Shown: positions 12,101 to 55,925, numbered from the stretch's first letter. The stretch: 55,925 nucleotides of DNA from a virus (IMGVR_UViG_3300027967_000009:1-55925), one strand, 5' to 3'. Numbers and translations: made by a program. The notes: generated by a model from the sequence alone, not told the origin.

Positions 12101-15100
12101 TAAATCAATAACACCACAGTTAGTATCGCTAATGTAACCGTGGCCAGCATAACTCCAGCTTGTCTTAAAAACATTGTGATTACCATTAAAGCAACCAGCA
12201 CTGGTTAATGCAGCAACAAACTGCGACGTTGTGATGGCACCAGTGCCGTGAATGGCACTTAATGATTTATAACGCGGAAATAGCGTGGTATCTGACGGAA
12301 TAGCCCCCAATGAGCCTACTGATATTTCGCTGTTGCTTACCCGGGTGTCATCATAATCTGTGATATCAGCAGCTGCTTTCCAATCGCCAGCAGCGTAAAC
12401 ACCATTTACTAGTTTTGCGATTATACAGCGACTAAAACCATTGCCTGTATCCCATAAATCACCTACATCATAAGGAGGGATTGGCTGCACCACAAAAACG
12501 CGACGTTTACCGTCAGCGGTGTCTTGTGCTTTTGCCGCATCAGATAATGCTTTAGTGATGTCCGAGTCATCAATTTTTGCCCAACTATAGGTTGTATTAA
12601 CTAATTTAAAGCGATAGGCAAAGCCAGTGTTGTCATCATAATAAATATCACTTAAGTGTTGATTTTTTAATGCGGTAGTAACCCATTCATTAGCCGGAGC
12701 ATTGGCTAACGTAGGCACACCAGCTTGGAACCAAGTGGTGACATTGCCATCAATTTGTGACTGTAATTCGGTGATATCTGTGCCGTATTGCACGCTGTCA
12801 ATGAACTTACTGTCTGCATAATCTTTTGCGGCCTCAATGGCAACAGTATTGGCTATACGTTCATCTTCATAATTGGTCGCTAATTCAGAAAAGCTGTCTG
12901 TGATTATTTCTACTAAAACATCACTGTACGCGCTAGATAATTCATCGGTAACAATAGCAACAGAAGCGCGATATTTTCCAGCACCTAACCCTGATATGTA
13001 TAGCTCATTATCATCAAGTAATTGGTTTGATATTAATGGTGGGTTGTCGTTGTGATCAAGCGAAGAGCTACCAAAGGCACTAAACCATAAATAATCACTT
13101 GCCGATGCAGATTTTGTATTGCTTCTCTTGTTTATTGCTATGCCAATATAGCTATTGCCCGCATGGCCATCAACGTGGTTAATGCCTTGTAAGTTAGTGG
13201 CATATTTCACCCAAATAAAGCGTTGTTCACCTTGTAATCCTGTTACTTCATAGCCAAACGACGAGTCAATAACAAACCATTGGTAATCACTGGCAACTAA
13301 CGACTTGGTGGCTGATGATTGGTTTAACGCAAAACCAATATGGGTTTTAGCTGTGGCGCTATCAGACATGTTACTGCCTGAAGAGTCTGAGGCATATTTC
13401 ACCCAAACATGACCGCCATTGTCATCAAATAATTTAACGCGATATTTCGCATTAAAGCTTGGCTCTACTGCATCCCAAGATAGCAAGCCTTGATTGATGT
13501 TGTCGGTGAGTTGGCTATAAATTAATCCTGAGACATCACTTAGCGTATTTAATAATTCGCCTTGCGTTGGAAATGGTTGTCTGTACTGTGGAACATATTG
13601 AATGTGGGTTGCATTAATACCTAAGTCTTCGCGTGTTTGAGATTTACCTACATATTTCGTTGAGTGCCAAGGGCCATTACCTGAACCTAGCGCATCGCCG
13701 ACTAATGGGCTTAAACCAAATTTTGCTTTGATAGAATTGGTTAATACTGGAAAGCTTGAATCAATACCGTCAATTAATACGACTAAAGCACCAGGAGCAC
13801 CACCAGCGCCTGAGCCTGAATAATAATCATATTCAGGTATAAGGTCACCTATTGAGCCATCTTCACCGCTGGTATCAACAAAGCCAGAAACACCAAAAGC
13901 CAAGCCTCTGGCAACGATTAATAATGAACCACCGCCAACACCACCAGCACCACCATCTTTATATGTTGAGCCATCATTAACCAGCTTACCATCTTTGCCT
14001 GATGTGCCACACATATCACCAGGTACGCCGTGCAAACCATATTGGTCTTGCGTGATATTTAACGCTGGTACCGAAGTGTTGCTGTTCATATCAGGTGAAT
14101 TAGCAGGATGATAACCGAGAGTGTGCCCAGACTTCTCTTTGTTTACATAATTACCATTATTATCTCTGTCATAATGAAATGAACCTTGAGATATTGTTAC
14201 GCCAAGATAACCTGAGGTTAAATATTCATCCGGGGTTTTCTTAACTCTAATTTCACCGTCAACTTGAAGATGGCCTTTAACCAATAAACCAACATTATCC
14301 CAAAGTGTTAATGTAACACCGTTAGGTATAAGCAGATCACCGTCAAAATGATACAGCTTACGACTGGTGTGGCTGTTCTTTATGATGCTAATCCAATAGG
14401 CTTGAGTGGTTTTAGTGCCCACTGTGCCGGGCAAGGTACCATCTTGCTGCAATGTTCCGTTGCTGATGTTCAGTAATGAAGACATTGATGAACCGTTTGA
14501 TGTATACCAGCTATCCTGTAACGCCCAATCTGTGGTTGCATCACTTTCGGTGATCACACTGGCTTTATCTGACGAACCAAACAAGCTTACTGTAACTTTG
14601 CCTGTAATTTGGTCCACCGTGACTTTTTGCACTTCAAAAGCACGCTCTATACGGTCAAACCCCATGAAATCACGTTGCTGTGGTAGTTTAACGCGAACAA
14701 TGTCACCTTGTTCTAAATCATTCATGCTCGGCAATAAAGTAGCCGTTAATAAAACAGGTGGGCCCGCATATCTATCACGAAGTGCATCAAATAAATTATG
14801 AATGTGAGTAATGGTGTGACGGCTAGAATGCAAGCCTTTAAAGCTCAACTTATAAACGGAGCCTAGGCCGTGCTTATTAATAGAGTTGCTATCAAGCAAG
14901 GTATGTTTACGATAAAACTGTGGGTCTTGCCCAACAAATTGCAAATAAGCCCAGTTAATTTCAATTTGGTTGTGAATTTTACTGTGATCATAAGTGATTT
15001 TGCTGTGGCTAACTATGTTGTCTTCATTTAACTCGGCAATAGCATCTGAGCCGCTTAACACACTCGACATTAATTTTAATGATAATTTGCCATCCGACAA

Positions 15101-16123
15101 AACGGGCATGAAAGCGCCCATCAGTAAACAGATTTCTTTTTCTATAAACGTTTTGCCATCCGTTTTGGTTAACCCTGAAAAATACGTAATGAAACCTTTG
15201 GAAAAGTCATTCTCATCAAATAAATCTTCACCAATATTAATAAACGCATCTGTGTTTACACTGCTTGGATCTATACCTAAATGCCAACGTGTTGGCAGCT
15301 TACCGCCACCAATAATGTCACCTGTTAACATGGCATAAGCCATCACTGGAATAGGTAGTTCAATGTATACGTATTCTTCAACAACAATGCCGTTATCATC
15401 AGTAGAATCAGTAGGTATGCTGTGTGAAATATCATTAGTGCCAAAAAGGCCACGCTCTATGCCGGTAAACGTAGTAGCTGTCTTACCTGATGCCCTAGCA
15501 ATTTCAAAAAGATCACCTTGGTATATTTTTAAATAAATATACTTTCCAGTTGGCTGATCAGAAAACGAAGCAACGTGATCACAAAACTCAAAACCTTCTG
15601 TGGTGCTAACCTCTATCGTTGTTTCATTAGCTAAAAAGTCACGGGTTAATTGTGTTTTAGCTAAATCAAAAATATCGGAACGTAACTTTCTTTGGATATC
15701 AGCACAGGTGACGGAGTACACGCTATTGTTATAGCTTACCTCTTTATCAATTTGCTGTGTTTGCTCTAGCCTGAAATCTGCAAAGTCCATGCCGAGGCCA
15801 CCACGGTATAACTTAACCGTTAAGCCATTTAAACCTTGATTTTGTGCATTAGCATTTCTAAAGGCTTGGGTAACTGCGCCATTAAGATCAAGTAAAGAAA
15901 AGGTCAATTTCCCGATTTCAGCGCGTGCGACATCGGGGTTAATGCTTTGTGAAATAGACGAGGTTTTTTTTACCGTATCGGTGATGGTATTAGCAGGTAA
16001 ATTGGGAATATCGGCGTGTGATGAAAAGTAAACCGGCGTGGCAAAATCAAGCATAATAACCAAGCGTAAGTCTTTGCTGCTTGATTGATTAAATATATTA
16101 AACTCTTGGCTGTTTTGGCGCAT
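9164..16123 (-). CDS. Very large tail tip/fibre (host specificity) protein, 2319 aa
   Basis: Position after TMP and distal tail gene; ANAITADKIA repeats; A..LDG motifs; DWIAIGY C-terminus. Confidence 0.85.
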   Translation of the reverse strand: MRQNSQEFNIFNQSSSKDLRLVIMLDFATPVYFSSHADIPNLPANTITDTVKKTSSISQSINPDVARAEIGKLTFSLLDLNGAVTQAFRNANAQNQGLNGLTVKLYRGGLGMDFADFRLEQTQQIDKEVSYNNSVYSVTCADIQRKLRSDIFDLAKTQLTRDFLANETTIEVSTTEGFEFCDHVASFSDQPTGKYIYLKIYQGDLFEIARASGKTATTFTGIERGLFGTNDISHSIPTDSTDDNGIVVEEYVYIELPIPVMAYAMLTGDIIGGGKLPTRWHLGIDPSSVNTDAFINIGEDLFDENDFSKGFITYFSGLTKTDGKTFIEKEICLLMGAFMPVLSDGKLSLKLMSSVLSGSDAIAELNEDNIVSHSKITYDHSKIHNQIEINWAYLQFVGQDPQFYRKHTLLDSNSINKHGLGSVYKLSFKGLHSSRHTITHIHNLFDALRDRYAGPPVLLTATLLPSMNDLEQGDIVRVKLPQQRDFMGFDRIERAFEVQKVTVDQITGKVTVSLFGSSDKASVITESDATTDWALQDSWYTSNGSSMSSLLNISNGTLQQDGTLPGTVGTKTTQAYWISIIKNSHTSRKLYHFDGDLLIPNGVTLTLWDNVGLLVKGHLQVDGEIRVKKTPDEYLTSGYLGVTISQGSFHYDRDNNGNYVNKEKSGHTLGYHPANSPDMNSNTSVPALNITQDQYGLHGVPGDMCGTSGKDGKLVNDGSTYKDGGAGGVGGGSLLIVARGLAFGVSGFVDTSGEDGSIGDLIPEYDYYSGSGAGGAPGALVVLIDGIDSSFPVLTNSIKAKFGLSPLVGDALGSGNGPWHSTKYVGKSQTREDLGINATHIQYVPQYRQPFPTQGELLNTLSDVSGLIYSQLTDNINQGLLSWDAVEPSFNAKYRVKLFDDNGGHVWVKYASDSSGSNMSDSATAKTHIGFALNQSSATKSLVASDYQWFVIDSSFGYEVTGLQGEQRFIWVKYATNLQGINHVDGHAGNSYIGIAINKRSNTKSASASDYLWFSAFGSSSLDHNDNPPLISNQLLDDNELYISGLGAGKYRASVAIVTDELSSAYSDVLVEIITDSFSELATNYEDERIANTVAIEAAKDYADSKFIDSVQYGTDITELQSQIDGNVTTWFQAGVPTLANAPANEWVTTALKNQHLSDIYYDDNTGFAYRFKLVNTTYSWAKIDDSDITKALSDAAKAQDTADGKRRVFVVQPIPPYDVGDLWDTGNGFSRCIIAKLVNGVYAAGDWKAAADITDYDDTRVSNSEISVGSLGAIPSDTTLFPRYKSLSAIHGTGAITTSQFVAALTSAGCFNGNHNVFKTSWSYAGHGYISDTNCGVIDLAGATIEVIGTSSTYMIRVTSAPSASGHGGLSHTTWEYRYHGSAYNPGWRMVLNSGNFQNSITQAFINSLNVDAATLGGYGESSFTRNRGSIGDDNVLVGSTANWPNNPLGGSYRTDYAGASGLVMMSNDVGGSTSSVALEFSYNGKVFFHSNTDSNKWNSYQIYTEETLTKAVIDALNVDASTLDDIDSTGFMRTAADGNGYWGLTPQGNSAGYVRSPQNGIIPFDSSKQAYLGTTSWRWKQIHGQAIYEAGISLSNRYLGLSALNYNDSATYAAAWLAVEEFKKWVTSGSADNSAYDTVTDSIATAFINSIIGQFNIVVANKANVGYLSANAISVGLNDKAVNENPYFQAEGAAAAGNSANGWSVNPFTKYGKQITDGIVADTCAEVTNNNLSGGFWSDDIHLEDGKVYKISLWIRNTSATVRTQYLACHFKDANGTRITSGGTGWSLGTYCYWGRVNQAIPGTDWVKYEVTLANVVESGDSSSFKTPAGTATVSLGILANYSASVGTGEATIQIQDYRIEEMTTSTTIVDGTITADKIAANAITADKVAANAITANKIATNAITAIKIAANAITAIKIAANAITADKIAANAITADKIAANAITANEINVESIFAEDVTATGTISGAKLIGGSVKTATTGDRIWITDNSMFAYVSGDNTPFFILNDKNSVYNLDGSLLYMGHGTYNGSVVSLKNNSAQHTGKFQQYGSGDAVYAYNYGSGHAVTGYVNNTTQASLFVNYGSGRAIRAVSSSGEAAEFVSASGKAPFLVNRNVVVTNLNADMLDGYHGSSSALANTYALRNSSGDIFARLLRSTYQNQSTISGAIAFRVNNGSDNYTRYCSSPSAVRTWLNTYSKSDVYNKTETYAKSQLFTQAEIAAAYAEKGWLDGGSAGGYGFKDTSTGFTVKTGRSYVGANSTITTTFSEAFTTIFTAVASGDQTNSGEWAYGSVYSRSNTQITIQNQDNSAHYIDWIAIGYT
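10281..10490 (-). repeat. 30-bp tandem repeat, about 7 units, encoding ANAITA(D/I/N)KIA
   Basis: GCAGTAATCGCATT recurs every 30 bp. Confidence 0.9.
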
Positions 16124-42924: not shown

Positions 42925-42964
42925 TTATTTTTTATGGCAAAATATCTTTTTTAATGGGAAATTT

Positions 42965-43615
42965 ATGCTAATGAACAAAACACTTGGGCAATGCCTTGAA
43001 TTCTACAGAACGGAACTCGGTTGGAGTCAAACGCAAGCATCGGGTGAAACTGATTTTGTTATTTCTCAACAGCAAATCGGCAAGCTAGAAAAAGATGACA
43101 TTAAAAACCCTGGTATATTTACCATAAACACCCTGCTTGATGCTTACAATAAAGAGCCTAACGATTTAAAAAAAGACATGGCTGAAGGTGTAGAGGTTGC
43201 GGTAAAAGAACAGGCGCCTTTATTTTCTGTTAGCTCAACTATCCCTTTACTTCATAGCAAAGACATTAAGTGCTACTTAACGGGTGAGCCGGTTACAGCA
43301 ATTGACCACATCCCTTATACTGAAAACCCAAGTAAAAAAATATACGCTGTTAAGTTGGCCAATGAATTAATGAGAGCTAACACTGGTAATAGTTACCCTG
43401 AAAAAAGCATCGTTATTTTTGATGCCACAAAGGTATTTAAAGATCATAGGGATATGATGATAGAAGTCGACGGGGATATTTTATTTAGACGCGTATTTAA
43501 AGACGGATCTACCTATTTTGTTAAAACAACCAACCCAGAATTTCCAAATTCAAGCTCCTGTAAAGATATTTCTTATTTAGGCAGAGCTGTTGAATGTAGA
43601 ATTATAACCAAATGA
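42965..43615 (+). CDS. CI-like prophage repressor (HTH plus S24-like domain)
   Basis: N-terminal XRE HTH; C-terminal SYPE.SIVIFD...NP.FP...GR.V; start 42965 or 42971. Confidence 0.85.
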   Translation: MLMNKTLGQCLEFYRTELGWSQTQASGETDFVISQQQIGKLEKDDIKNPGIFTINTLLDAYNKEPNDLKKDMAEGVEVAVKEQAPLFSVSSTIPLLHSKDIKCYLTGEPVTAIDHIPYTENPSKKIYAVKLANELMRANTGNSYPEKSIVIFDATKVFKDHRDMMIEVDGDILFRRVFKDGSTYFVKTTNPEFPNSSSCKDISYLGRAVECRIITK

Positions 43616-44211: not shown

Positions 44212-44240
44212 TTTTTATTTGAATTATGTGGAGGTTGGTC

Positions 44241-47200
44241 ATGAAAAAACTAACCTTACAACAATTTTATCAAGACAAATTTAGAGGTGACGCCACACTT
44301 TTAATGGCTCACCCTGAAGCATTTAATCAATTGTCTGCTGAGGCAGATAATGCCTATGTGGTTTGGTCTGATATTTGTAACGACATTGACCCAAGCAGAA
44401 TGGGCGGTAAAAACAGTGATAAGTTCACTGGTAAAGTGCCTGTTTCAAACACTAAATACAAAGGCCGTGCGGCTGTTTATAGTAACCTACGTAGCTCGGA
44501 CGATAATACCTTTGAATACCCCACGGTTAACTTTGTATTAAAAGGTAATAACGTTGGTGGTTGGTCTGGTCTGTCTTTGTTAGTAAAACTATACAAAGAA
44601 CACAAGGGTACTATTACTGACAATGAACGACTTAAATGGCAGCGCGAGAGCGAGGCTAAAAAGAAACAATTACTTGCAAAACAAAGCGCAGCAAAGCAAG
44701 AAGGCGAACGCAAAGAAAAACGAAAACACGAATTAAATCAACAGTATAGTGCACTTTTTGATGTTTCACCAAAAGAAGATGGCAGCCAGAGTTACTTAGT
44801 TAAGAAAAAAATAGCTGAGGTGGTTCAATACATAGATATTCGTCGCTGTGTTGAGTTTGATGATGTATATAGCTTAGGTAGAAAAGGCCAAGAGTTTTTA
44901 GCGATTCGCTTTATCGATATTGACGGTAACTATGTTGGTCTTCAACGAATATATGAAGATGGCGCCAAGCTCAACACACCAGGCTTTGATTTTAGCAACG
45001 GTGCACACTGTGTTATTGGTGACATTGATGCTGCAGACGAAAACTATATTTACGCCGGTGAGGGTTTTGCTACTTGTGCAAGCGCTATGCTTGCTATGCA
45101 CAACCATAAAATTGCTAATAATCGCAAAAAAACAGCAGTTATCATAGGTATCAACTCAAACAATTTAAAGAAATGTTTGGCTCTTTTTAAAGACCAAGAA
45201 GCTGACCTAAAAATAAATCATCTGGCTGATAATGACCAATGGAAAAACCAACAAGGTAAAGGTAATGCTGGTTTATTAATTTCATGTTTTGCTGTTGATG
45301 TACTGGGTTATAAATCGGTGGTACCGCTTTTTGAAGATTACACCTTTGATGGTGTTGAATTTGATGAACGACCAACCGATTTTAATGATTTACATTGCCT
45401 TGCTGGGTTAAGTGAGGTTAGACGACAACTAAAAGCCCAGCGCAATAAATTTAAATCTTCAGGTAAAAGCCCTTTTGATAAAACTTGCCGTGAGCTGCGT
45501 TATATTGCTGCTGGTAACGATAATAAAAAGCTCTTTGAGTTAGTTAATAGAGCAATTCAACAAGGTGTCCAACTTTACCCTATACATTACGGTGTGGCTG
45601 ATATTCTTGCTTGTATTGAACACAACATTAAACACCTTTATCACCTGTTTGATAAAGTGAGTTACTTTAATGAACTAAGTGGTCGCTTAAATTGGATTAT
45701 AGGTAAACGTGTCAATAATGCTCAGGCATTCCGTTCGTTTAGTGAAGAGGTTATTTCTAAGCCTCACGTTAACTATAAAAAGTTTAATGACACCCGAATA
45801 ACGCCCGAGATTTATGCGTACATTAAAAACTTAAATGGGGCCGTAGTGGTAAGGGCGCCTATGGGTAGTGGTAAAACCCAACACTTACTTAGCCCACTGA
45901 TGGCCAAATCAGATAGAGCTGCGTATTTTGCACACCGAGTATCATTAATCGCCTCAAGTGTTAGTAATTTAAATAAACGCAGAACAACTCACGCAATTAA
46001 TAAATTTTCGCCCGTTGAACTTGAGCATGTAGATCATATCTTTGCCCAATCTTTTACTCCGGTTGGCTTGAGTAAGTCATTGCCGACTGATTTTTTAGTT
46101 CAAAACTACCAAGACTTTAAAGGTAACGGTATGGGTGTGTTTGCTCGCTCTGTTGAGCAAATGGCCATGTGTATCAACTCTATTACTAATCCATCGTTTT
46201 CACCATTATTGGAGGATTTGGATTTTTCAGCATTTGATGAAGCCGCTCAAACATTGCGCCACGTAGCAGATGGTAGTGCATGTGATAAACCTGAAATGGT
46301 TTATAACGCTATGCTTAAAACCATTAAAAACAGCAGCAAGCAGGTTATTTTGTGTGACGCTGATGCCAATGATGAAGTGATTGAAATGTGCGAACAAGCT
46401 CGCCCTGGTGAAATAATTCATGTGGTTGAGCTAGACACCGATTTCAGCGACATAAAAGTAAAATATACAGACAATGGCGATCAGGTTTTCAACCAAGTGT
46501 TTACTGCTGTCGAAAATAATGAAAAAGTTATCGTTGCTAATGACTCGGCCACCAACGGCAAATCCATGTATGAGCGACTTAAAGAGCGCTTTCCTGCTAA
46601 ACGCTTCTTGTTTATTTACCAAGACTCAAAAGGCAATGCTGATGTTGATTACTTCAACCAAAACCCTGATTTAGCGGTAAACGAGCAGCAATATGATGCT
46701 GTTATTTACTCTCCTTGTATAAGTTCTGGTGTTTCGCTTGAGTCGGGCTATTTCACTAAACATTTTGCTATTTTATGCGGCACCGTAGCACCATCTGACG
46801 CCATTCAAATGATTAGACGCGATCGCTGTGCTAAAGAATTCATTATCGGGTTTAACAAACAAAACACCACATACCCCGAAACTAAAGAAGAAATTATTAT
46901 CGGTATGATCAAAGCGGATGATATCAATCTTACGCTCGATTTATCTGAAGGCATGATGCGACTTGGCCGTATGTACACCAAATTTGATGATATGCGTATC
47001 AATGTTATTGCTAAGCAAAATAGAGCGCGGAATGACTTTGCTAATAACATGCTATTGATACTGCAAGGGGATAAATATCAGCTTGAGCGCATTGCTGAAA
47101 ATGAAGTGGAAAAAGAAATAGGTAATGCACAACGTAACCTTGGTAGAGAAATAGCCAAAGCGCGTGATTTAGAGCTTCAATTAAATCAGGAAACACCCGA

Positions 47201-48110
47201 ACCAGAAACAGCTGAGCGACTTCGTAAAGAAGATTGCGTGAGTGAAGAAGAACGGGCGCAACTAAAACGTTATGATATTGAAACACAGTTATGTTCACAA
47301 GTTACCGCTGACACTATCGCGTTTAATGATGACCGCGGCATAAGTAAAGTAAAAAACTTTGAACTACTGAAAGGTAATATCAGCCAAGCCAATGCTTACG
47401 ATGTTTCTGAAATTGCCACCAATATTTCCTTTAGTGCTCGAGAACGAAAAACCGCAAAAATGAATCTACTGCACCAGGTGTTTTCAATACTAGGTGTTGA
47501 TAAGGCGTCTGGTGAAGGGGAGTTTACTGGCGAGCAAATGCGCCTAGTTCGTGATTCGCTGTTAGGTAGCGAAGACGATATTATGCTGTATAACACTACT
47601 CGTATAGGTGGCTACATTCACCCTAAAACGCGCAAGAAAAAATGTGAGACAACCTTTGTTAAAAATATTTTATCTAAATGCGGCCTCGAGCTTGGCTCAC
47701 GTTTAGAAGGTAAAGCGAGAAAACGCATATCATTTATCAAGCCTGGCGTATGGGATGTTATGCAATCCTACTTTAAAGCCCGTCAAGAACAAAGCATTTC
47801 GTCACTTGAGCCGTTGCAATATGATACTGATGCGGAGGTACTTAAGCGATCGGGTTTAACGATTGATATAAACCTTATTAATAAAGCCGATCACCAAAGT
47901 ATTACTTACGCAAAAATGGCTGGAAACGCTTTAACGGCGCTGGTTAACGAGGCTATCGAAGGATTGAATATTAGCTTTGAAAATGCGGTAAGCATGCTTG
48001 ATGGTGAAACTATCACTGATATTCTAAATGATGACATGCCAATTGGCATGTTGCGCTCATATTTCGCGACTCAAGAGAAATATGAACGGCAATTAATGGC
48101 TGTTTGTTAG
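44241..48110 (+). CDS. repA: N15-type RepA primase-helicase
   Basis: TOPRIM (EGFAT, ADND, TDFNDLH), APMGSGKT, DE motif; GGAGG RBS before ATG 44241. Confidence 0.92.
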   Translation: MKKLTLQQFYQDKFRGDATLLMAHPEAFNQLSAEADNAYVVWSDICNDIDPSRMGGKNSDKFTGKVPVSNTKYKGRAAVYSNLRSSDDNTFEYPTVNFVLKGNNVGGWSGLSLLVKLYKEHKGTITDNERLKWQRESEAKKKQLLAKQSAAKQEGERKEKRKHELNQQYSALFDVSPKEDGSQSYLVKKKIAEVVQYIDIRRCVEFDDVYSLGRKGQEFLAIRFIDIDGNYVGLQRIYEDGAKLNTPGFDFSNGAHCVIGDIDAADENYIYAGEGFATCASAMLAMHNHKIANNRKKTAVIIGINSNNLKKCLALFKDQEADLKINHLADNDQWKNQQGKGNAGLLISCFAVDVLGYKSVVPLFEDYTFDGVEFDERPTDFNDLHCLAGLSEVRRQLKAQRNKFKSSGKSPFDKTCRELRYIAAGNDNKKLFELVNRAIQQGVQLYPIHYGVADILACIEHNIKHLYHLFDKVSYFNELSGRLNWIIGKRVNNAQAFRSFSEEVISKPHVNYKKFNDTRITPEIYAYIKNLNGAVVVRAPMGSGKTQHLLSPLMAKSDRAAYFAHRVSLIASSVSNLNKRRTTHAINKFSPVELEHVDHIFAQSFTPVGLSKSLPTDFLVQNYQDFKGNGMGVFARSVEQMAMCINSITNPSFSPLLEDLDFSAFDEAAQTLRHVADGSACDKPEMVYNAMLKTIKNSSKQVILCDADANDEVIEMCEQARPGEIIHVVELDTDFSDIKVKYTDNGDQVFNQVFTAVENNEKVIVANDSATNGKSMYERLKERFPAKRFLFIYQDSKGNADVDYFNQNPDLAVNEQQYDAVIYSPCISSGVSLESGYFTKHFAILCGTVAPSDAIQMIRRDRCAKEFIIGFNKQNTTYPETKEEIIIGMIKADDINLTLDLSEGMMRLGRMYTKFDDMRINVIAKQNRARNDFANNMLLILQGDKYQLERIAENEVEKEIGNAQRNLGREIAKARDLELQLNQETPEPETAERLRKEDCVSEEERAQLKRYDIETQLCSQVTADTIAFNDDRGISKVKNFELLKGNISQANAYDVSEIATNISFSARERKTAKMNLLHQVFSILGVDKASGEGEFTGEQMRLVRDSLLGSEDDIMLYNTTRIGGYIHPKTRKKKCETTFVKNILSKCGLELGSRLEGKARKRISFIKPGVWDVMQSYFKARQEQSISSLEPLQYDTDAEVLKRSGLTIDINLINKADHQSITYAKMAGNALTALVNEAIEGLNISFENAVSMLDGETITDILNDDMPIGMLRSYFATQEKYERQLMAVC

Positions 48111-48174
48111 CAAAAACGCAATAAACCAAATTTAAAAACAGTCGCAATTTTAGTATTGCTACCCAAACTCACCC

Positions 48175-48447
48175 TTATTTCATGCTGTTGATAACGCTTT
48201 TAAGTTCACTTTCAATGTATTCATGAAGCGTTAGGTCAGCGCCTCTGGCGCTTTCGGCTAGCTTTTCGTTTAAATGTATCACACTACTTAGCTTTTTCAT
48301 TAAGTCATGTTTGGTGGGCTTTGTGATAACACTAACAGCATGCTCAAGCTGCTGCTCTGTAACACCGAGAAGTGAAGAAAGTTCAACGGGAAAGTCTGCA
48401 GCTGCTTTCTGAACCTGTATTAATAAATTTTGCTCTACTTGTGACAC
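48175..48447 (-). CDS. Small 90-aa ORF, candidate antirepressor or effector
   Basis: AAGGA RBS with GTG at 48447; directly downstream of the kinase; function inferred from position only. Confidence 0.55.
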   Translation of the reverse strand: MSQVEQNLLIQVQKAAADFPVELSSLLGVTEQQLEHAVSVITKPTKHDLMKKLSSVIHLNEKLAESARGADLTLHEYIESELKSVINSMK

Positions 48448-48574
48448 GAAAAAAATTCCTTTTTGACAACAAAATAAAAAGTCAGGATGAATACTAGTAG
48501 AGTAGAGGGCAACAAAGAAGACACGAAATTTTTGTGGGTTTACTCCCACAAAAATAAAAAAAAGTGAATTAAAT

Positions 48575-51421
48575 TTAGTTAACCAAACTTATCTGTGATT
48601 TTGGGGCAAAAAGTGGTGCATAAAAACTATCTTTCAATGCCTCGTAATGGCTGTTATAAACCATTTCAGCTTCACGCATAGCATTAGTGTACTGCTCATG
48701 TTTTCCATGCTCAAAATAGATATTAGCAAGCTGTAAGTAGATGTTCATCTTGTCAGGCGAGTGTGTTTTTTCTAAGTCACGCCACACAAACAAGGCCTCA
48801 GCCTTTTTGGCCAACTCAATACCTAATTCACTTTGTGCGTTAATTTGCCTTTCTATTAAAGCAATATCCAACATAACCCTAGCATTATCATCAGCCACAA
48901 AGCCTTGCTGTCCTTTTCTTAATGCTAACACCTCGGCAATACTAGCCAGTACCTTATCGTCATTATAATTGGCAAAGTCATAGTAAAGTTTAACCAACTG
49001 CAACTCATAGGGCTCAACCATATCGTTATAATCTTCATTGGTTTTCAATAAAGTGCTCAGCAGTGTATCAGCAACGGGTTTTAACAACGGGTTAGTGCGG
49101 TCAAAGCCGGTAAACTCTAAATAATTTATAAGCAATACACGAATAGAGTCTAAACCGACAAAGCCATATCGGTCAGCGCTTTTATTATAATTTTCAAAAT
49201 AGGTTATCGCTTTATGAACCTCTCGCTCAGCGCTGGCTATATCCCCTTGGTAAAGGTAGCTTACACCTAACAAGTAACTGTTAAGCATCCACCCGTCAAA
49301 TTTTCTCCAACCATAATAATCGGTAGCGGCTTTAATACTTTGCGTGGCTAGCGGTAAGTCAAGCAAGCGATTAACCACATATTGGTTTCGCCACGACTCC
49401 ATTACTAATTCATTATCATTGCCAGGTAACTCACTGGCCATGTCAATAGTTTGTTTGGCTGCGTCTAACGCTTCATTATAATCACCAAGCTCATATAAAA
49501 CCCGAGACTTTAAATTAATGCTTTTAATCAACAGTTCGTTACCACTAACACTGTCAGGTATGTGATGTATTGCTTGTTCAATACTGCTCTGTGCATCGGT
49601 TAATACTGCAGTTAAATACCTGTTATGATCGTCTTCGCTTACACCATCGCCTGGGCTAATGTTTGAACCATCGTAGTAATAAAAATACTCGCGGGCTTGG
49701 TAATATTTTAATAAACCCTGTTGGTCCAACGCTAAATCCTGCCAATACAGTTTTTCTATTTGTTTTAACGTACTAAGTGCTTTGTCATCATCGCCATAAA
49801 CCTCAGAAATATATTTAACATCGGTATCAAATAGCGCTAAGTAACCCAAAGCATGCTCAACAGTAACAAAGCCATTTTTTTCTAACTCAAGCATAAAAGG
49901 TTGGGCAGCAGCTTGCGCTTGTTCAACCCTATCATTAAAAGATAACGCCTTAGCATACAACGCAGAAACAAGGGGTAAGTATTTGTTTTTGGCAACCGAA
50001 ATCGCTTTTTTATACAGCGAAATAGCAGCAGCAACTGATAACGGATCACCTTTTTGCATGGCAGCATTCGCGATAGCCATCGCGTGCTGATATACCAGTG
50101 CTTTATCAGCCTCAGTGTTATCAATAATACTCTTTAGATTTGTTAACGCGTCAAATTGTTCGTTTTGAACGTAATGAGCGTAATTATTAGCTATCTGCGT
50201 TAAAAATGTGTTGTTGTTATGCTGCTGCTGAATATAACCCGAAGACGTATAAGAAATAACAGAAAAAGTAATACAACTTACCGCCCCTGCAGTAGCTAAT
50301 GCGGCATGAACAGGCTTTAAAAAAAGATGCTTATAAATACGATAAAAGTAATTGTTATTATGTGATTTCACATAACCTAGCTCTAAAAAAACCGACAAAT
50401 CATGACTGAATTCAGCCATTGTTTTATAACGTTTTTCTTTATTTGGCTCAGTAGCTTTTAATAAAATACTATCAAGCTCTTTTATCCAGCGTTTATATTT
50501 TTTCTCATCGGGTGAAAAACTAATATTGTCGCTTGGTAAATTTTTTCTGACATCAAAGGGTGGTTTCAACCTGGTAAGCAGTTCGTATAAAACCAAAGCA
50601 ATTGAATAAACATCGCTACCAAAGGTTAAAGGCTCATTGTTTTTAAGCTCAGGGCTTGAATAATCACAACTAAACACTTCGGCATACTCGTAATTTTTTT
50701 CATCAACTTTCTTTTTAGCACGTTGGGCAATACCAAAATCACAAAGTAAAGGGTCCCCTTGCTTATCCATCAAAATATTTGAAGGTTTAATGTCAGCATG
50801 TATATAAGAATAACTTGAGTGGGCAAAATGTAATGCATCGCAAACTTTTAAAACTGCTTGGATGGTGTTTTTAATGTTTGAAAAAATCAAACTATTTAAT
50901 AAACCGTCAGTAATATTGCCGTAGTCAACATAATCCATCACGTAAAAAGGCAGTTTTAAATTGTTATAATCAATAACGCCAGCATCAAAAACACGCGTGA
51001 TATATTTATGCTTGAGCTGCGCCATAATGTTGGCTTCGCGATCTATTAAGTCATAATCATAAACATTAATTAAATGTGGCTTAACCACTTTAACCACGGC
51101 CTTTTGATTAACCAGTAAACCATCTAACCGCTCAGCATAAAAAATATGGCCCATACCACCAGAGGTAATATAGTTCATTAGGGTGTAGTTGCCCACGTCT
51201 TTACCCAGCAGTGTTTTGGGGTCAAAAGAGCTCTCAACAAAAGAACTAAAGCTAACAGAATAGGCATCGGGTGACATTTCAACATCACTAGCCACCTCAA
51301 TCAAATTCAGCACATCGTTTTTTAACGTTTCATCATTGCCACATAACCTATCAAGCTTTTCATCTCTTAATCTGGGTGGCGTATTCTCAATAACGTTCCA
51401 TATCTCGAATAAATCAGCCAT
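48575..51421 (-). CDS. Membrane Hanks-type Ser/Thr kinase with TPR-like C-terminal domain
   Basis: GGMG, VVK, HADIKPSN, DFG, SPE, DVYS; one TM segment; long helical repeat region. Confidence 0.92.
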   Translation of the reverse strand: MADLFEIWNVIENTPPRLRDEKLDRLCGNDETLKNDVLNLIEVASDVEMSPDAYSVSFSSFVESSFDPKTLLGKDVGNYTLMNYITSGGMGHIFYAERLDGLLVNQKAVVKVVKPHLINVYDYDLIDREANIMAQLKHKYITRVFDAGVIDYNNLKLPFYVMDYVDYGNITDGLLNSLIFSNIKNTIQAVLKVCDALHFAHSSYSYIHADIKPSNILMDKQGDPLLCDFGIAQRAKKKVDEKNYEYAEVFSCDYSSPELKNNEPLTFGSDVYSIALVLYELLTRLKPPFDVRKNLPSDNISFSPDEKKYKRWIKELDSILLKATEPNKEKRYKTMAEFSHDLSVFLELGYVKSHNNNYFYRIYKHLFLKPVHAALATAGAVSCITFSVISYTSSGYIQQQHNNNTFLTQIANNYAHYVQNEQFDALTNLKSIIDNTEADKALVYQHAMAIANAAMQKGDPLSVAAAISLYKKAISVAKNKYLPLVSALYAKALSFNDRVEQAQAAAQPFMLELEKNGFVTVEHALGYLALFDTDVKYISEVYGDDDKALSTLKQIEKLYWQDLALDQQGLLKYYQAREYFYYYDGSNISPGDGVSEDDHNRYLTAVLTDAQSSIEQAIHHIPDSVSGNELLIKSINLKSRVLYELGDYNEALDAAKQTIDMASELPGNDNELVMESWRNQYVVNRLLDLPLATQSIKAATDYYGWRKFDGWMLNSYLLGVSYLYQGDIASAEREVHKAITYFENYNKSADRYGFVGLDSIRVLLINYLEFTGFDRTNPLLKPVADTLLSTLLKTNEDYNDMVEPYELQLVKLYYDFANYNDDKVLASIAEVLALRKGQQGFVADDNARVMLDIALIERQINAQSELGIELAKKAEALFVWRDLEKTHSPDKMNIYLQLANIYFEHGKHEQYTNAMREAEMVYNSHYEALKDSFYAPLFAPKSQISLVN

Positions 51422-52028
51422 TTTTACTACTCAACAAATGCGATTTAATAACGGCATCAGCAAACTCTAGGTAGCGATAAAAGGTGCTTTCACTTATACC
51501 GAGTATCACTGTTATTTTTTGAACATCAACCCCCCAAAGCCTATATAAACTAAAGGCAATAGACTGCTGTTTTGCTTTGCTTTCTAAGACTGAAATAGCT
51601 TCATCTAGCATTAAAAAAGAGTGTTCACTGTTTAATGAGTTACTGTCTGACAAATACGCGTTTGGGCAGGCACCTATTTGAACTCTATTATCAGCCCCAT
51701 GCCTGCTCAACTTTCTGGCTTCATCAACCAAGGTTGAGTACACCATTTTTCTCAATAAAATAAACAAATCGTTAATGGAGTGAAAATAAATATTATTTTG
51801 TTTGGTAAGTAGCTTAATAGAAACCGTTTGAGCAATATCGTTAACACCAAACAGTTTTAACGGAGTAGCAACCACTTTACCTTTGCTAAATTCTAACGCT
51901 GAAAATTTAGTAATAAATGGCTGTAAATAAATAACCAAATCATTTCTAGCTTGTTGGCAACCAGCGTTCCATTGCTCAATTAAATAGGTAAGCTTTTCAA
52001 CATCAACATCAACATCAACATCAAGCAT
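51414..52028 (-). CDS. ECF sigma factor, kinase-associated type
   Basis: LT.LI.QW..G...A...L, LVD.ARK, LDEA...L, LGISEST..R...A. Confidence 0.82.
   Translation of the reverse strand: MLDVDVDVDVEKLTYLIEQWNAGCQQARNDLVIYLQPFITKFSALEFSKGKVVATPLKLFGVNDIAQTVSIKLLTKQNNIYFHSINDLFILLRKMVYSTLVDEARKLSRHGADNRVQIGACPNAYLSDSNSLNSEHSFLMLDEAISVLESKAKQQSIAFSLYRLWGVDVQKITVILGISESTFYRYLEFADAVIKSHLLSSKNG
51999..52022. repeat. (AACATC)4 microsatellite at the sigma N-terminus
   Basis: Encodes DVDVDVDV. Confidence 0.75.
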
Positions 52029-52731
52029 TGTTAGCCCCCTTTAATTCAAATAATTGCTTTGCTGTTAATACGGTTATTTCATTTGAACATCGTAACGTGT
52101 CTATCCACACTTGGTTTTGCTTAACCACAACGTTCTGGCTGTTTGTATGACCATGAACAGTAAGATCAATATTGCTGATGGCTTGTTCTAAAGACTTTGG
52201 GCGGTTAAATTTTTCACTAGACCAAAACAATAAATCTTGCTGATCGTCAGGTAAATCAGAGTGGATAATATCATGCCAATCATCGGGCGCTTGGGCGTGG
52301 GTTAACCCAATATTCCCATAAGGTGTTTCAATGGTAATGGCTAAATGCATTTTGGCATAAACAATCGCCATAAAAAAAGTAAGTTGTTTGTCGGTGTTTT
52401 CTAGCTGTAGCAACCATTGACCACCAATGTTAAGCAAGGTGTCAATCAACTCAGGGTTAACCCTAAGATCTAAAAGCATGTCTTCGTGATTGCCCATCAC
52501 CGCAAAGAACCAAGGTTCAAGCAATAAATGTAAACACTCAGCTGACTTGTCTCCTCGGTTAATCAAATCACCTACCGAAAACACCCGGTCACCGTTATCA
52601 GCATTAAAACCAGCGCAAGCCAATGACTTCATCAGCACATCGTAATGGCCATGAACATCGCCAATAAAGTAATCCGTTCCTTTTTCATTAACACTAAAGT
52701 GCTGATGATAATTAATCCGTTTTTTTGGCAT
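52021..52731 (-). CDS. PPP-family Ser/Thr phosphatase (lambda NinI/PphA-like)
   Basis: GDVHG, VGDLINRG, GNHE, HGHT, IDT. Confidence 0.92.
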   Translation of the reverse strand: MPKKRINYHQHFSVNEKGTDYFIGDVHGHYDVLMKSLACAGFNADNGDRVFSVGDLINRGDKSAECLHLLLEPWFFAVMGNHEDMLLDLRVNPELIDTLLNIGGQWLLQLENTDKQLTFFMAIVYAKMHLAITIETPYGNIGLTHAQAPDDWHDIIHSDLPDDQQDLLFWSSEKFNRPKSLEQAISNIDLTVHGHTNSQNVVVKQNQVWIDTLRCSNEITVLTAKQLFELKGANNA

Positions 52732-52782
52732 AACAAACAAAAGTAAAAAGTGATGCTTTATAGTACACCAAAGCTAAAAATG

Positions 52783-52811
52783 AAAAAAGCGGCAATAGTT
52801 GCCGCTTTTTT
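52783..52811. terminator. Bidirectional terminator after the peptide gene
   Basis: AAAAAAGCGGCAA-TAG-TTGCCGCTTTTTT. Confidence 0.88.
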
Positions 52812-52827
52812 GTAGTAGAAACAAAGC

Positions 52828-53040
52828 CTAGATGCGCACTTTGCCGCGACTAGAGCCTGTTTTTTTGTATTCAATTCTAACTTTGCCGCGACTAGAACCA
52901 ATTTCTTTATAATCAATTCTAACTTTACCACGACTAGAACCAACTTCTTGGCTAGTAACAGTGTTGTTATCAACTACGGGTGTAGCGTCTACAGTTGCTG
53001 GTGTTAAAGATAAAACTGCCGCTAAAAGTGTGCTTAACAT
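52828..53040 (-). CDS. Exported pre-peptide with three GSSRGKVRI repeats
   Basis: AGGGA RBS, hydrophobic signal-like N-terminus, 14-aa (42-bp) period, third copy ends at the stop codon. Confidence 0.8.
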   Translation of the reverse strand: MLSTLLAAVLSLTPATVDATPVVDNNTVTSQEVGSSRGKVRIDYKEIGSSRGKVRIEYKKTGSSRGKVRI

Positions 53041-53115
53041 ATTGTATTCCCTATAAGTGTCAAAAATTTGTTGAACACTTATAGAGCAATAATTAAGCCA
53101 AGGTTGGTTTAGTGT

Positions 53116-53700
53116 TTATATTCCCTTATGTTTTTTCATATCCTCATACAGCTTCATAAAAGCTAACTTAGCCAACGCTTGGCCACTGTTACGCTCAATG
53201 GTGAAATCAGCATTCTCATAGCCACTACTAGTATGAATTCTTAGATCACAGTTTTTAGCAGCAATCATTTTTTTAAAAAGTTCAAACGGTATAGCGATAG
53301 TGCTTTCACTTTCAGTAAAAATACTTTTAGAAATAGTATTCCAGCCATCATGACTTAAACGAGTTCCGTAAGTATCGAATCGCTCTACTTCTCCATTTAT
53401 TTTTATACTTACGCCATCAATACTTGTATAAATAGCTCGGCCGTTAGTATCTGAACCGTACACCATACTTAGCACAACAGTGTCAGGCATGGATTCATTA
53501 TAATAAGCCCCCATACGAACAGAATTATTAAGCATCCCACCATCATTTAGATAAGTAGGGGTAACAACAACTTGGTAGTTACCCTCAAAATCTTTTGATG
53601 AAGTGAGTTGGCCAACACCAGTGGCCTTATCAAGCGAATCAGCAACGCTGGCACAGCCAATAACAGTTAATGCAAGTAAAAGTATGAGTATTTTTTTCAT
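53116..53700 (-). CDS. Lipoprotein
   Basis: MKK-hydrophobic-VIGC lipobox. Confidence 0.8.
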   Translation of the reverse strand: MKKILILLLALTVIGCASVADSLDKATGVGQLTSSKDFEGNYQVVVTPTYLNDGGMLNNSVRMGAYYNESMPDTVVLSMVYGSDTNGRAIYTSIDGVSIKINGEVERFDTYGTRLSHDGWNTISKSIFTESESTIAIPFELFKKMIAAKNCDLRIHTSSGYENADFTIERNSGQALAKLAFMKLYEDMKKHKGI

Positions 53701-53755
53701 TGTTTTTTATTCCTTTATTAAAAAATGGGCAATCCCATGAATAAAGTAACATTTA

Positions 53756-55711
53756 TTACAACTTTTTCACCTGAATTTTATTATGTGGCCCTTTAAAGCT
53801 AGCTAAGCCAGCATCATTCAAAGCAATTCTTTCAGCATCCTTTTCATTTTTAGCGTAAAGAGTGTCTTGAAAATAAGGTCCTGACTTATAAGGAATGGTT
53901 ACTTTAAACTCAAACAACTCACCAACAAATAAAGCATAACCTGTCTTCATGGCTAATATTTTATCGTCAGAGCGCAGCGTAAACATGGCTGTTTTATTAC
54001 CTAACGATACCGATATTTTCCATTTATCATCACCTAAGTCATGAGCTTTAATGTGGGGTTTTTCCGATTTTTTAGTTTGAGGGCTTTCTTTTACCTCAGC
54101 TTTTTCTACTACCGCTTTAACTTGCTCAACCGGCTCATCTTCAATGTCTTCTTCATGTTGAACAGATAAAGGTTCACCAGGGGAAACTAAATCACCAATA
54201 GCCGCTAAGTAGTTTTTAATAGTGCCTCGGTAAACCCCAGTTTCCCGCGTCAGCATTGATTGGTTTATTTCAATAAACGGGTTTTTCTCAACCTCATTTT
54301 TAACCCATGTGTGAAGTTTAATTGCTGCATCACCTCGAGCTAAACCTTCCATTATATCGTCTAATTCGCACAGCTCTTGCCAGCGTTCGTTAACCGTTGC
54401 CGTTGGCTCATAATCAGCAACAAAGTTATTTAATTTGTACGGTTTATAGTGTGCTTGGGCGTTAGTGTCATTGTGAACAAATAACTCATAAAAAAAGATA
54501 TCTTCGTCTTTATCGCGCCAGCGAGGATCGGTTAAATAATATTTTTGGTAACAAATTCGGCCATATATGCCGCGCGTATCTTTTGGTACTCTACGCTTAT
54601 CAACAAAGAAATCTTTGGCAAAATCGCTTAGGTGAGGTGCCACTTTTCCCTTTATCACCTCGTTATCAGTTCGATGATCTTCACCTTCGCTTTCAGAAAT
54701 AATTTTTTGAGTAATAGGGTGATTACGAAGAACACCAAAAGCATTTAGAAAAACATCATTATCAACTAAGCAATAAATCAAATTACTTTGCTCAGCCTCT
54801 TCATCAGTACGTTTTTTAGCTTGCCCTGAAAATAGTAATTGATGCTTGCCTTTAGCCTTGAAATAGCCAGTTTTTAATATCTCAATAGGGCGCCTACCAG
54901 TAGCAGCACATAACGCAAAAACCAAAGGAGCTATGCCACTTACCAAACCATTAAATGTAGCATCAGGGTGAGATAAAATTGATAGAATGCGCTCCATATA
55001 AGAAGGGTAATCAACATACACGACAGTGGTTTTCTTTTTATTTAGACTGCTTTTAGCCTTATTGCTTAGCACGGCTTTATCAGCGTGTGGCAGCACCAGG
55101 TTAACTATTAACTCATGATCAACCTTTAAAGCTTTAAGCTCTCCAAACAAGGGCTTAGCCTCATTAACAGCCTTAATTAACGTGGTTTTTGCTGCCATAG
55201 TATTATCCTTATCACCCAGAGCAGTAATTAAACTCTCGTATTCAGGGTATTCTTCGGCTAGCTTCTTTAATTTTCTAGTTAACGATTTACTAAAATCAAG
55301 CAAATCAACTTTTTCCATCAGCTCATGGCTTGCTGCAAGGGCGTCTAATAAGTTTTTTTTAGCTATTCTAGCTTCAGTTGGTTCTAAACCAGATAAACCA
55401 AGCAAAAAACCACTATGTGCTGGGTATTTTTTGGTTAATCGACCCAATTCACTTTCATATCTATGATGAATGCCGCTTATATTTTGAATAGCTTTTCTAA
55501 CCTTTGTTAAGTAGCTTCTAGCTGTGCTCAGTGTTATTTTTGAATCCGCCCGCTTCCTGCCGTCACCATATAATTTGTTAATAAAAACACTAGCAAGGCT
55601 TTGAAATTTCTTTGTTTTCTTATGCTGTGGAATGTCGCTATTCTCTATACCATTAAACTCAATAACTAACCATTCAATTAATTCCTTCAACTTTATTTTT
55701 TGTGTAGACAT
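53756..55711 (-). CDS. telN: Protelomerase (telomere resolvase, TelN-like)
   Basis: TGRR..EI, FSGQAK, KD.R.IY, H.D...Q.HY; adjacent to the hairpin end. Confidence 0.95.
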   Translation of the reverse strand: MSTQKIKLKELIEWLVIEFNGIENSDIPQHKKTKKFQSLASVFINKLYGDGRKRADSKITLSTARSYLTKVRKAIQNISGIHHRYESELGRLTKKYPAHSGFLLGLSGLEPTEARIAKKNLLDALAASHELMEKVDLLDFSKSLTRKLKKLAEEYPEYESLITALGDKDNTMAAKTTLIKAVNEAKPLFGELKALKVDHELIVNLVLPHADKAVLSNKAKSSLNKKKTTVVYVDYPSYMERILSILSHPDATFNGLVSGIAPLVFALCAATGRRPIEILKTGYFKAKGKHQLLFSGQAKKRTDEEAEQSNLIYCLVDNDVFLNAFGVLRNHPITQKIISESEGEDHRTDNEVIKGKVAPHLSDFAKDFFVDKRRVPKDTRGIYGRICYQKYYLTDPRWRDKDEDIFFYELFVHNDTNAQAHYKPYKLNNFVADYEPTATVNERWQELCELDDIMEGLARGDAAIKLHTWVKNEVEKNPFIEINQSMLTRETGVYRGTIKNYLAAIGDLVSPGEPLSVQHEEDIEDEPVEQVKAVVEKAEVKESPQTKKSEKPHIKAHDLGDDKWKISVSLGNKTAMFTLRSDDKILAMKTGYALFVGELFEFKVTIPYKSGPYFQDTLYAKNEKDAERIALNDAGLASFKGPHNKIQVKKL

Positions 55712-55799
55712 AACTTAATCCTTATAAAAAACCACTAAACTTACATATATAGTAACACATACAACATACATAGCAAGTGCTTTGTATACAACACTATAC

Positions 55800-55925
55800 A
55801 ACATACATAGTATCAACTACCACCACACTATCACCCATGTATGATATACATTAAACCTATACGTATAGGTTTAATGTATATCATACATGGGTGATAGTGT
55901 GGTGGTAGTTGATACTATGTATGTT
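55800..55925. repeat. Right hairpin telomere (telR), read through as a perfect palindrome
   Basis: Centre 55862|55863; 55819-55862 identical to 3-46. Confidence 0.95.

Follow-up and report, generated by a model that had tools for sequence, protein, structure and literature searches.

The viral record IMGVR_UViG_3300027967_000009, a complete IMG/VR virus record of 55,925 bp with a completeness rating of 100% (referred to below as the window, that is, the whole stretch of DNA that was analysed), carries between its convergent repA and telN genes a cluster of minus-strand genes that appears to form a signalling cassette. The cluster codes for a pre-peptide with C-terminal repeats, a Ser/Thr phosphatase, a divergent sigma factor of the extracytoplasmic function (ECF) type and a receptor Ser/Thr kinase, and a small open reading frame (ORF) preceded by a promoter-like motif follows directly (Table 1; L numbers denote related loci). 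An earlier note on this DNA had placed the first four genes here, the last three of them overlapping by 8 bp each, and both their coordinates and their families proved to be as claimed. Its gene set was incomplete, however: it missed the 90-aa ORF, the probable output gene, with its conserved and unique motif. The 8-bp overlaps between the phosphatase and sigma genes and between the sigma and kinase genes suggest translational coupling of the three enzymes.

Table 1. Features of the candidate cassette and of its surroundings in the window (RBS, ribosome-binding site)
Feature	Position	Strand	Basis
Pre-peptide gene, 70 aa	52828..53040	(-)	ORF; homologues in L007, L004, L002/L008, L006
PPP-family (lambda/PrpA-PrpB-like) Ser/Thr phosphatase, cytoplasmic, 239 aa	52021..52740	(-)	Pfam Metallophos, E 2.9e-11
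Divergent ECF-type sigma factor, 204 aa	51414..52028	(-)	Matches to PF07638 and TIGR02999
Receptor Hanks-type Ser/Thr kinase, 948 aa	48575..51421	(-)	Pkinase match, residues 84-335, E 7.5e-29
Small ORF, 90 aa, GTG start, RBS AAAGGAA, directly downstream of the kinase gene	48175..48447	(-)	Homologues in L007, L004, L002, L041
Promoter-like motif GTGGGAGTAAA-N13-CGT, ~75 nt upstream of the small ORF	48523..48549	(-)	Conserved in 5 distinct loci
Intrinsic terminator, 13-bp stem and T run, between peptide and phosphatase genes	52783..52811	(-)	Equivalent GC hairpin after the peptide gene in L007, L004, L002, L006
Palindrome CTATAAGTGT-N14-ACACTTATAG, directly before the peptide RBS	53051..53084	(-)	Conserved in 5 loci, unique in the window
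Protelomerase TelN (context)	53756..55711	(-)	Pfam ResT/TelK domains; 38% identity to the protelomerase of phage PY54 (Yersinia)
RepA, 1,294 aa (context), convergent with the cassette	44226..48110	(+)	82% identity to RepA of L007
cI-like repressor (context), upstream of repA	42962..43615	(+)	phrog_4 repressor match

The kinase is built from a conserved N-terminal extension (residues 1-75), the kinase domain (~80-350), a transmembrane segment (~366-392) and a superhelix of tetratricopeptide repeats (TPRs; ~396-948). The catalytic Lys and Glu and the HxD-K-xxN and DFG positions (K111, E129, D210, N215 and D228) are invariant in an alignment of 18 kinase sequences, and the segment at ~366-392 is the sole strongly hydrophobic one. 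At the sequence level, several TPR models match the protein weakly, under their cut-offs. The C-terminal 549 residues were modelled as an all-helical solenoid of ~26 helices (predicted local distance difference test, pLDDT, 84; predicted template modelling score, pTM, 0.81), for which Foldseek gave 44 matches at E<=0.001, all of them TPR superhelices. The strong matches are IFT-A, Ctr9, TTC7B, OGT, LGN, Tom70/71, APPBP2 and LbcA; no RRNPP or AimR structure is among the 44 matches listed at this threshold. The description of the protein as a kinase with one transmembrane segment and a TPR-like C-terminus is thereby borne out, the sensor being confirmed as TPR-like at the level of the modelled fold, without a specific relative.

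The sigma factor comprises sigma-2 and sigma-4 regions only and matches PF07638 over residues 12-198 (E 5.6e-10; 39.8 bits, cut-off 21.1). This family is unspecific and also matches ordinary ECF sigmas in 8 of 14 control genomes, E. coli included. The best NCBIfam match is TIGR02999, a model of kinase-associated sigma factors, although its score (50.5 bits) lies under the cut-off of 126.15. A sequence search of the PDB yielded no relative with E below 0.38, and neither ORF calls nor Pfam revealed an anti-sigma-like ORF in the telN-repA interval.

More telling features emerged when nine cassette-type sigmas were aligned with ordinary ECF sigmas from the same metagenome-assembled genomes (MAGs). 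All nine share a 10-residue insertion just before region 2.2, in which a Thr-Pro pair is invariant (9/9). Within region 2.2, the canonical DxxDxxQE has become xxxD-IA-QT in eight of the nine: the window reads GVND-IA-QT, with DVSD in L007 and CPED in L004 at the corresponding residues, and the ninth sequence (L006) reads SPDD-IA-QE. The third position is thus N, S, E or D, and Thr replaces the core-binding Glu of QE in eight sigmas, the natural Glu being found in L006. In the ECF43 sigmas EcfP and EcfK, the DxxD charges are lost and a phospho-Thr occupies the third position (QTTA) (PMC8999054, PMC13147305). Judged by its sequence, the cassette sigma is not a textbook ECF43. The Thr at the QE position may instead be a solution analogous to the ECF43 phospho-Thr, with phosphorylation by the kinase taking place there or at the Thr-Pro. 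That kinase-activated ECF sigmas exist, the premise from which a kinase-switched sigma had been proposed, is documented (PMC8999054, PMC13147305); of the proposal itself, the ECF-type sigma beside a kinase stands, whereas the ECF43 signature, QTTA in place of DxxD, is absent.

At the overlap of the phosphatase and sigma genes lies a perfect hexanucleotide repeat (TCAACA x 4.7; 51997-52024), which codes for the VDVDVDVDV start of the sigma factor and could vary in length in frame; the L007 sigma starts with the same Asp-Val alternation, one residue longer (MLDVDVDVDVD). The phosphatase itself contains the motifs GDVHG, GDLINRG and GNHE, the Asn of the second being common to all homologues, and matches NCBIfam PRK11439 (E 1e-27) and PRK09968 (E 3e-25), both under their cut-offs. 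Homologues with 45-71% identity occur in all loci.

The pre-peptide consists of a hydrophobic leader (MLSTLLAAVLSLTPATVDA) ending in VDA, an acidic spacer and three copies of GSSRGKVRI, the last of which forms the C-terminus; the mature peptide is strongly basic (isoelectric point, pI, 10.4). In the DNA, the repeat has a period of 42 nt and 2.7 copies. The three 27-nt cores differ pairwise by 2, 7 and 5 nt (14 in total), with 0 amino-acid changes. Recent duplication is therefore ruled out as the reason for their identity, and selection on the protein is shown. The synonymous nature of the differences, together with the same gene order in other loci, argues that the peptide gene is no chance ORF; on this comparative sequence evidence it is real and part of the cassette. 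Two other explanations of the region were rejected: an alternative-frame ORF (52758-52973) extends across the terminator, and it is the peptide frame alone in which the repeat differences are silent; an array of non-coding iterons or a small RNA is at odds with the protein motif, which the loci keep although their codons differ.

Homologous genes show how this layout varies. The repeats are 3 x GAKRGKVR[VI] in L007, one degenerate unit followed by 4 x G[ST]HSGKI[RK]I in L004, and 3 x G(G)KKGKIR[IV] in L006, while in the L002/L008 lineage the peptide repeats are degenerate and the neighbouring sigma gene is broken into two ORFs. In every locus the protein ends with its last repeat and the core GK[VI]R[VI] is kept, with the 2-3 residues preceding it varying by locus (SSR, AKR, SHS, KK). 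The four intact homologues have a leader-like N-terminus with V-x-A, judged by its shape, and repeats that end at the C-terminus. From this shape (hydrophobic core, V-x-A, acidic spacer) we infer a pre-peptide of secreted type. No result obtained here supports the claims of the earlier note that the peptide is processed to a nonamer, or that it leaves the cell and acts between cells. A complex prediction that paired the mature pre-peptide (residues 20-70) with the sensor (residues 396-948, given as an alignment of 18 rows) was run without controls and scored 0.02 and 0.01, the mark being 0.32.

The peptide gene is co-oriented with the enzyme genes, as had been stated. It has its own Shine-Dalgarno sequence (AGGGAA, 7 nt before the ATG) and its own terminator, which had been overlooked, and therefore forms a separate transcription unit outside the enzyme operon. 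The conserved palindrome before its ribosome-binding site may act as an operator, belong to a promoter or form a 5' hairpin. No convincing promoter of the peptide gene, whether sigma-70 or sigma-dependent, was found: the sole sigma-70-like match (53036-53063; 10/12, TTGACA-16-TATGTT) overlaps the start codon with its -10 element. A TTGACAC block and the MLS(T/A) start of the peptide gene are conserved in all loci.

The small ORF downstream of the kinase gene codes for a protein that was modelled with five helices (pLDDT 88). It has no match in Pfam, PHROG, PADLOC or Atlas, and a fold search gave none at E<=0.001. The motif upstream of it reads GTGA(c/g)AGTAAA(cc), 12-13 nt, (T)CGT(G/A)T in the five loci that share it, each time ~75 nt before the ORF. 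There is one mismatch-free match in the window, and the 13 others need 2-3 mismatches, the chance expectation being 11.9; elsewhere in 517 kb of fetched loci the motif was not found. A CGT-type -10 element with an upstream block at a fixed distance is the style of ECF promoters. We propose the motif as the candidate single phage target of the cassette sigma, and the small ORF as the probable output gene of the switch. If its single phage target is the promoter of the small ORF, then sigma factor and small ORF would form a pair of a transcription factor (TF) and a small ORF (smORF), by analogy with the pairs of the telN-repA locus. An orphan cassette-type sigma occurs together with a divergent small-ORF homologue and the same motif at L041:7898-9969 (G002:C89), in a chromosomal setting among arginine-biosynthesis genes. 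A HipA-like ORF and a transposase-like ORF lie nearby, kinase, phosphatase and peptide genes are absent there, and the MAG to which L041 belongs holds at least 3 further sensor copies, some of them decayed.

That the parts belong together is indicated by their occurrence elsewhere. The peptide gene lies upstream of the phosphatase gene in 5/5 distinct loci that include this DNA (the window, L007, L004, L002/L008 and L006), and peptide, phosphatase, sigma and kinase genes follow in the same order in all of them, which supports the assumption that they form one unit. The adjacency of sigma and kinase genes recurs in L007, L004 and L006, the L006 kinase having 32% identity to that of the window. 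The cassette is flanked by telN and repA in L007, as in the window, and by telN in L004. L006, in contrast, is a circular phage contig of 57.6 kb from a genome of the family Alteromonadaceae, with terminase, portal and head genes of its own, an integrase and ParA; when the window ORFs of at least 100 aa were used as queries, the matches on L006 were a single-stranded DNA-binding protein and the three cassette enzymes only. Hence, the cassette appears to move as a unit between unrelated phages, and on this gene content it is not confined to telomere phages. Intact copies are all found in phages, three of them in the lysis-control locus. Further copies and the orphan sigma are present in chromosomal contigs of two MAGs, where the cassette copies are decayed (split sigma, degenerate peptide).

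By all searches, the family is very rare. Of 1.84 billion cluster representatives, the sensor profile retrieved 26 proteins at E<=0.001, with 13 still matching at E<=1e-30, and 10/10 tested distant sensor homologues have an N-terminal kinase domain. Word-based searches gave 8 other kinases and 9 other sigmas, and sensor carriers amounted to 3 of 401 genomes in a family-level sample and 2 of 401 in an order-level sample, all already known. Among 50,697 phage records, blastn with 48000-55925 found no match, and tblastn with the kinase found generic kinase-domain matches only (identity <31%). A DNA-pattern scan of IMG/VR for the leader of the peptide gene returned 20 stretches, of which the L006 contig carries the cassette and 19 are chance matches. 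The nearest cassette-bearing genomes all belong to the Alteromonadaceae, namely MAGs and one further genome. The 6 public runs that contain window DNA are marine sediment metagenomes, 3 of which may be sources of the window; no RNA run with this region is listed among the public runs, and contigs from DNA runs compared over the region added nothing on variants or expression.

The window codes for a large terminase, a portal and a major head protein; since these are accompanied by a protelomerase, RepA and a cI-like repressor, it is a temperate phage of the telomere (linear plasmid-like) kind. The record ends 214 bp past the telN start (55712-55925), at about the same distance past telN as the centre of an inverted duplication in L004. 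In that locus (L004:2119-6408), telN and the first cassette genes are inverted-duplicated around ~position 4263, ~190 bp beyond telN. This is the pattern expected from an assembly reading through a hairpin telomere, and accordingly the window record is in the prophage (linear plasmid) arrangement. The window sigma was also found on a contig of 111,753 bp, about twice the size of the record. A lipoprotein gene of unknown function (53116-53700; lipobox LTVIGC, phrog_7678) between telN and the peptide gene was rejected as a cassette member because it is absent from the other cassette loci, and a minus-strand ORF of 2,319 aa in the structural region (9164-16123) presumably codes for a tail or host-recognition protein.

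The repressor bears on how such a prophage might be induced. In a weak alignment with the C-terminal domain of lambda cI (E 0.007), the cI-like protein has Leu in place of the catalytic Ser and Arg in place of the catalytic Lys, and thus probably is without the Ser/Lys dyad for self-cleavage. If the alignment is right, the repressor would be unable to cleave itself and induction must run through an antirepressor; the phage may accordingly be SOS-insensitive and reliant on antirepression. A repressor without self-cleavage and induction via an antirepressor are described for N15-type phages (Silpe et al., PMC10432266). As weak evidence, the non-cleaving cI raises the prior for the small ORF as an antirepressor-type factor.

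The cassette seems to join two known kinds of systems. The first is represented by EcfP-PknT of V. parahaemolyticus and EcfK-PknS of X. citri. As in these pairs, an ECF-type sigma adjoins a Hanks kinase that spans the membrane and has an N-terminal extension as well as a periplasmic TPR domain, an anti-sigma gene is missing, and TIGR02999 is the best NCBIfam model for the sigma, albeit under cut-off. ECF43 sigmas activated by TPR receptor kinases are documented, and a Ser/Thr phosphatase has been foreseen there as an off-switch (PMC8999054, PMC13147305, the latter for the phosphatase). The cassette differs from these pairs in region 2.2, where Asp4 of DxxD is kept and Thr stands for the Glu of QE instead of the QTTA arrangement; in the size of the sensor (550 residues versus three TPRs in PknS); and in being phage-borne and accompanied by genes for a pre-peptide and a PPP phosphatase and by a small output ORF. 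The second kind are the TF-smORF modules of telomere phages, VqmAPhi-Qtip of VP882 and TF72-smORF72 (Silpe et al. 2023, PMC10432266), whose documented home is the same locus between convergent repA and telN; the claim that this interval hosts lysis-control modules is thus well founded. There, too, the small ORF next to a transcription regulator belongs to no known family, and repA has a gene for a cI-like repressor upstream of it. In contrast to the modules described in that paper, the regulator of the cassette is no one-component transcription factor but a sigma factor, presumably under the control of the receptor kinase and the phosphatase, and the candidate signal is encoded by the phage itself.

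Two further systems resemble the cassette in part. With arbitrium (AimP-AimR-AimX of Bacillus phages) it shares the logic only: a phage pre-peptide made up of a leader and an active C-terminal portion, a receptor of TPR fold, a small downstream output gene, and a peptide sequence that varies by phage with its core motif kept. Homology is absent. The receptor of the cassette would be a membrane kinase sensing outside the cytoplasm, its TPR domain following the single transmembrane segment of an N-terminal kinase, and not a cytoplasmic DNA-binding protein with a TPR domain as is typical of arbitrium and RRNPP receptor-regulators; no import by Opp would be needed, the host is Gram-negative, and a precursor holds 3-5 peptide copies. 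The KKP module of Pf prophages likewise is a prophage-borne set of Ser/Thr kinase and phosphatase whose balance sets prophage activity, but it is described as two soluble kinases acting on host MvaU in toxin-antitoxin defence, with no sensor domain, sigma or peptide (PMC11341870).

In full-text literature searches, neither this cassette nor any switch of kinase and ECF sigma carried by a phage was found described. The word 'kinase' is absent from the main texts of PMC10432266 and of the mBio 2025 telomere-phage paper, whose supplementary IMG/VR tables may include this record; 'phosphatase' and 'ECF' are absent from the main text of PMC10432266.

These observations are tentatively read, with a confidence somewhat short of even, as a mobile five-gene signalling cassette of temperate marine phages that acts as a sensory switch on prophage fate: a phospho-switch of receptor kinase and sigma would drive the small output protein, and the peptide would be the likely periplasmic ligand. 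The components could operate in the following manner: The peptide, exported by its leader and perhaps cut to nonamers ending in GK(V/I)R(I/V)-COOH, would be the ligand of the periplasmic TPR sensor. It could report on other cells, on nearby lysis or on the envelope state of the producer itself. The kinase would phosphorylate the sigma, candidate sites being Thr65, in place of the core-binding Glu of region 2.2, and Thr55 of the invariant Thr-Pro in the insertion. The phosphorylated sigma would become able to bind RNA polymerase and fire the single promoter before the small ORF, and the phosphatase would reset it. Finally, the small protein may inactivate the non-self-cleaving cI, in the manner of the smORFs encoded between telN and repA by other telomere phages, and this would lead to prophage induction. 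With respect to its individual elements (ligand, phosphosite, promoter and output), this mechanism is a well-founded hypothesis drawn from the sequence. The lysis-versus-lysogeny output that had been proposed for the locus, however, is supported by no result of this analysis.

Several points weigh against this mechanism. The hallmark of ECF43, the uncharged QTTA for DxxD, is absent from the sigma; as one Asp is always kept and L007 reads DVSD, the sigma may not need phosphorylation. The leader has an atypical n-region with neither Lys nor Arg, its export having been judged by eye, and a peptide of ~1 kDa must cross the outer membrane twice in order to act between cells. The AAC-to-CGT spacing of 12 nt in the promoter-like motif is shorter than in typical ECF promoters, and the spacing fits the ECF style only if the -35 element is read as GTGACA (GTGACA-N18-CGT). 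The motif was not found before the peptide gene or the enzyme operon, and no feedback loop is visible. A 76-aa ORF downstream of the L006 kinase gene shows no detectable homology with the small ORF (hhalign probability 0.9%). From phage to phage, smORFs are reportedly unrelated as well. The weakness of the cI alignment likewise counts against the part assigned to the repressor.

In its most far-reaching form, the switch would be one of phage-phage communication: a phage-made, secreted, multi-copy cationic peptide is read in the periplasm by the receptor kinase and the sigma is phosphorylated, which leads to induction, an arbitrium-like logic realized with unrelated parts, without peptide import and in a Gram-negative host. 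This extension is rather unlikely, and cell-to-cell communication is its boldest and least supported step.

The main alternative, itself unlikely, is an envelope-stress module of lysogenic conversion, in which the kinase would respond to envelope damage or to cationic compounds and the sigma would switch on protective host genes in the lysogen; the peptide would serve as an accessory periplasmic factor or decoy rather than as a signal, and the output would not be prophage fate. Precedents exist in EcfP/PknT, which answer polymyxin, and EcfK/PknS, which answer amoebae (PMC8999054, PMC13147305); the basic character of the mature peptide and the presence of cassette copies and of the orphan sigma in chromosomal contigs of two MAGs would also be in line with such a role. 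Yet the only conserved cassette-linked promoter-like motif in the window precedes the small ORF of the cassette itself, the intact copies all reside in phages, three of them in the lysis-control locus, and it is the chromosomal copies that are decayed. An independent role of the peptide gene as a mere neighbour is distinctly unlikely; it would then code, for example, for a secreted cationic antimicrobial or adhesive peptide or for a superinfection-exclusion factor, and the kinase would sense something else. The separate transcription unit of the peptide gene, with a terminator of its own, and the atypical leader would be compatible with this, and nothing ties the peptide physically to the sensor. 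The peptide gene nevertheless accompanies the enzyme genes in all five loci, even where kinase identity falls to 32% and the phage backbones are unrelated, and decays together with the sigma in the L002/L008 lineage, whereas the adjoining lipoprotein gene is not conserved in other loci. Less likely still is an anti-phage defence or toxin-antitoxin module in which an infecting phage unleashes a toxic kinase with the phosphatase as its antidote, as in KKP: prophage accessory loci often carry defence genes and the kinase matches the PADLOC models PD-T4-6 (E 7e-42) and mad6 (E 1e-34), but these matches span the generic kinase domain alone (residues 76-345) and not the whole protein, the fit to PknB is just as good (E 1e-42), none of the other four products (phosphatase, sigma, peptide, small ORF) has a PADLOC match, and an intracellular trigger of abortive infection leaves the periplasmic 550-residue sensor, the sigma and the secreted peptide unexplained.

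Should the phospho-switch on prophage fate prove right, it would extend the repertoire of temperate phages in several respects. Those lysis switches of telomere phages that are known to work without SOS consist of one-component transcription factors, which eavesdrop on autoinducers of the host; signalling through eukaryote-like receptor kinases and the phosphorylation of a sigma factor would join the means by which phages decide their fate. The sigma would represent a second, structurally different site of phospho-control in ECF sigmas, at the Glu of QE instead of DxxD. To our knowledge, communication of phages by peptides is so far limited to Gram-positive hosts and relies on cytoplasmic receptors; for a Gram-negative phage, the pre-peptide would be the first candidate peptide cue encoded by the phage itself. 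The parts of the cassette are few and portable: five genes and one promoter.

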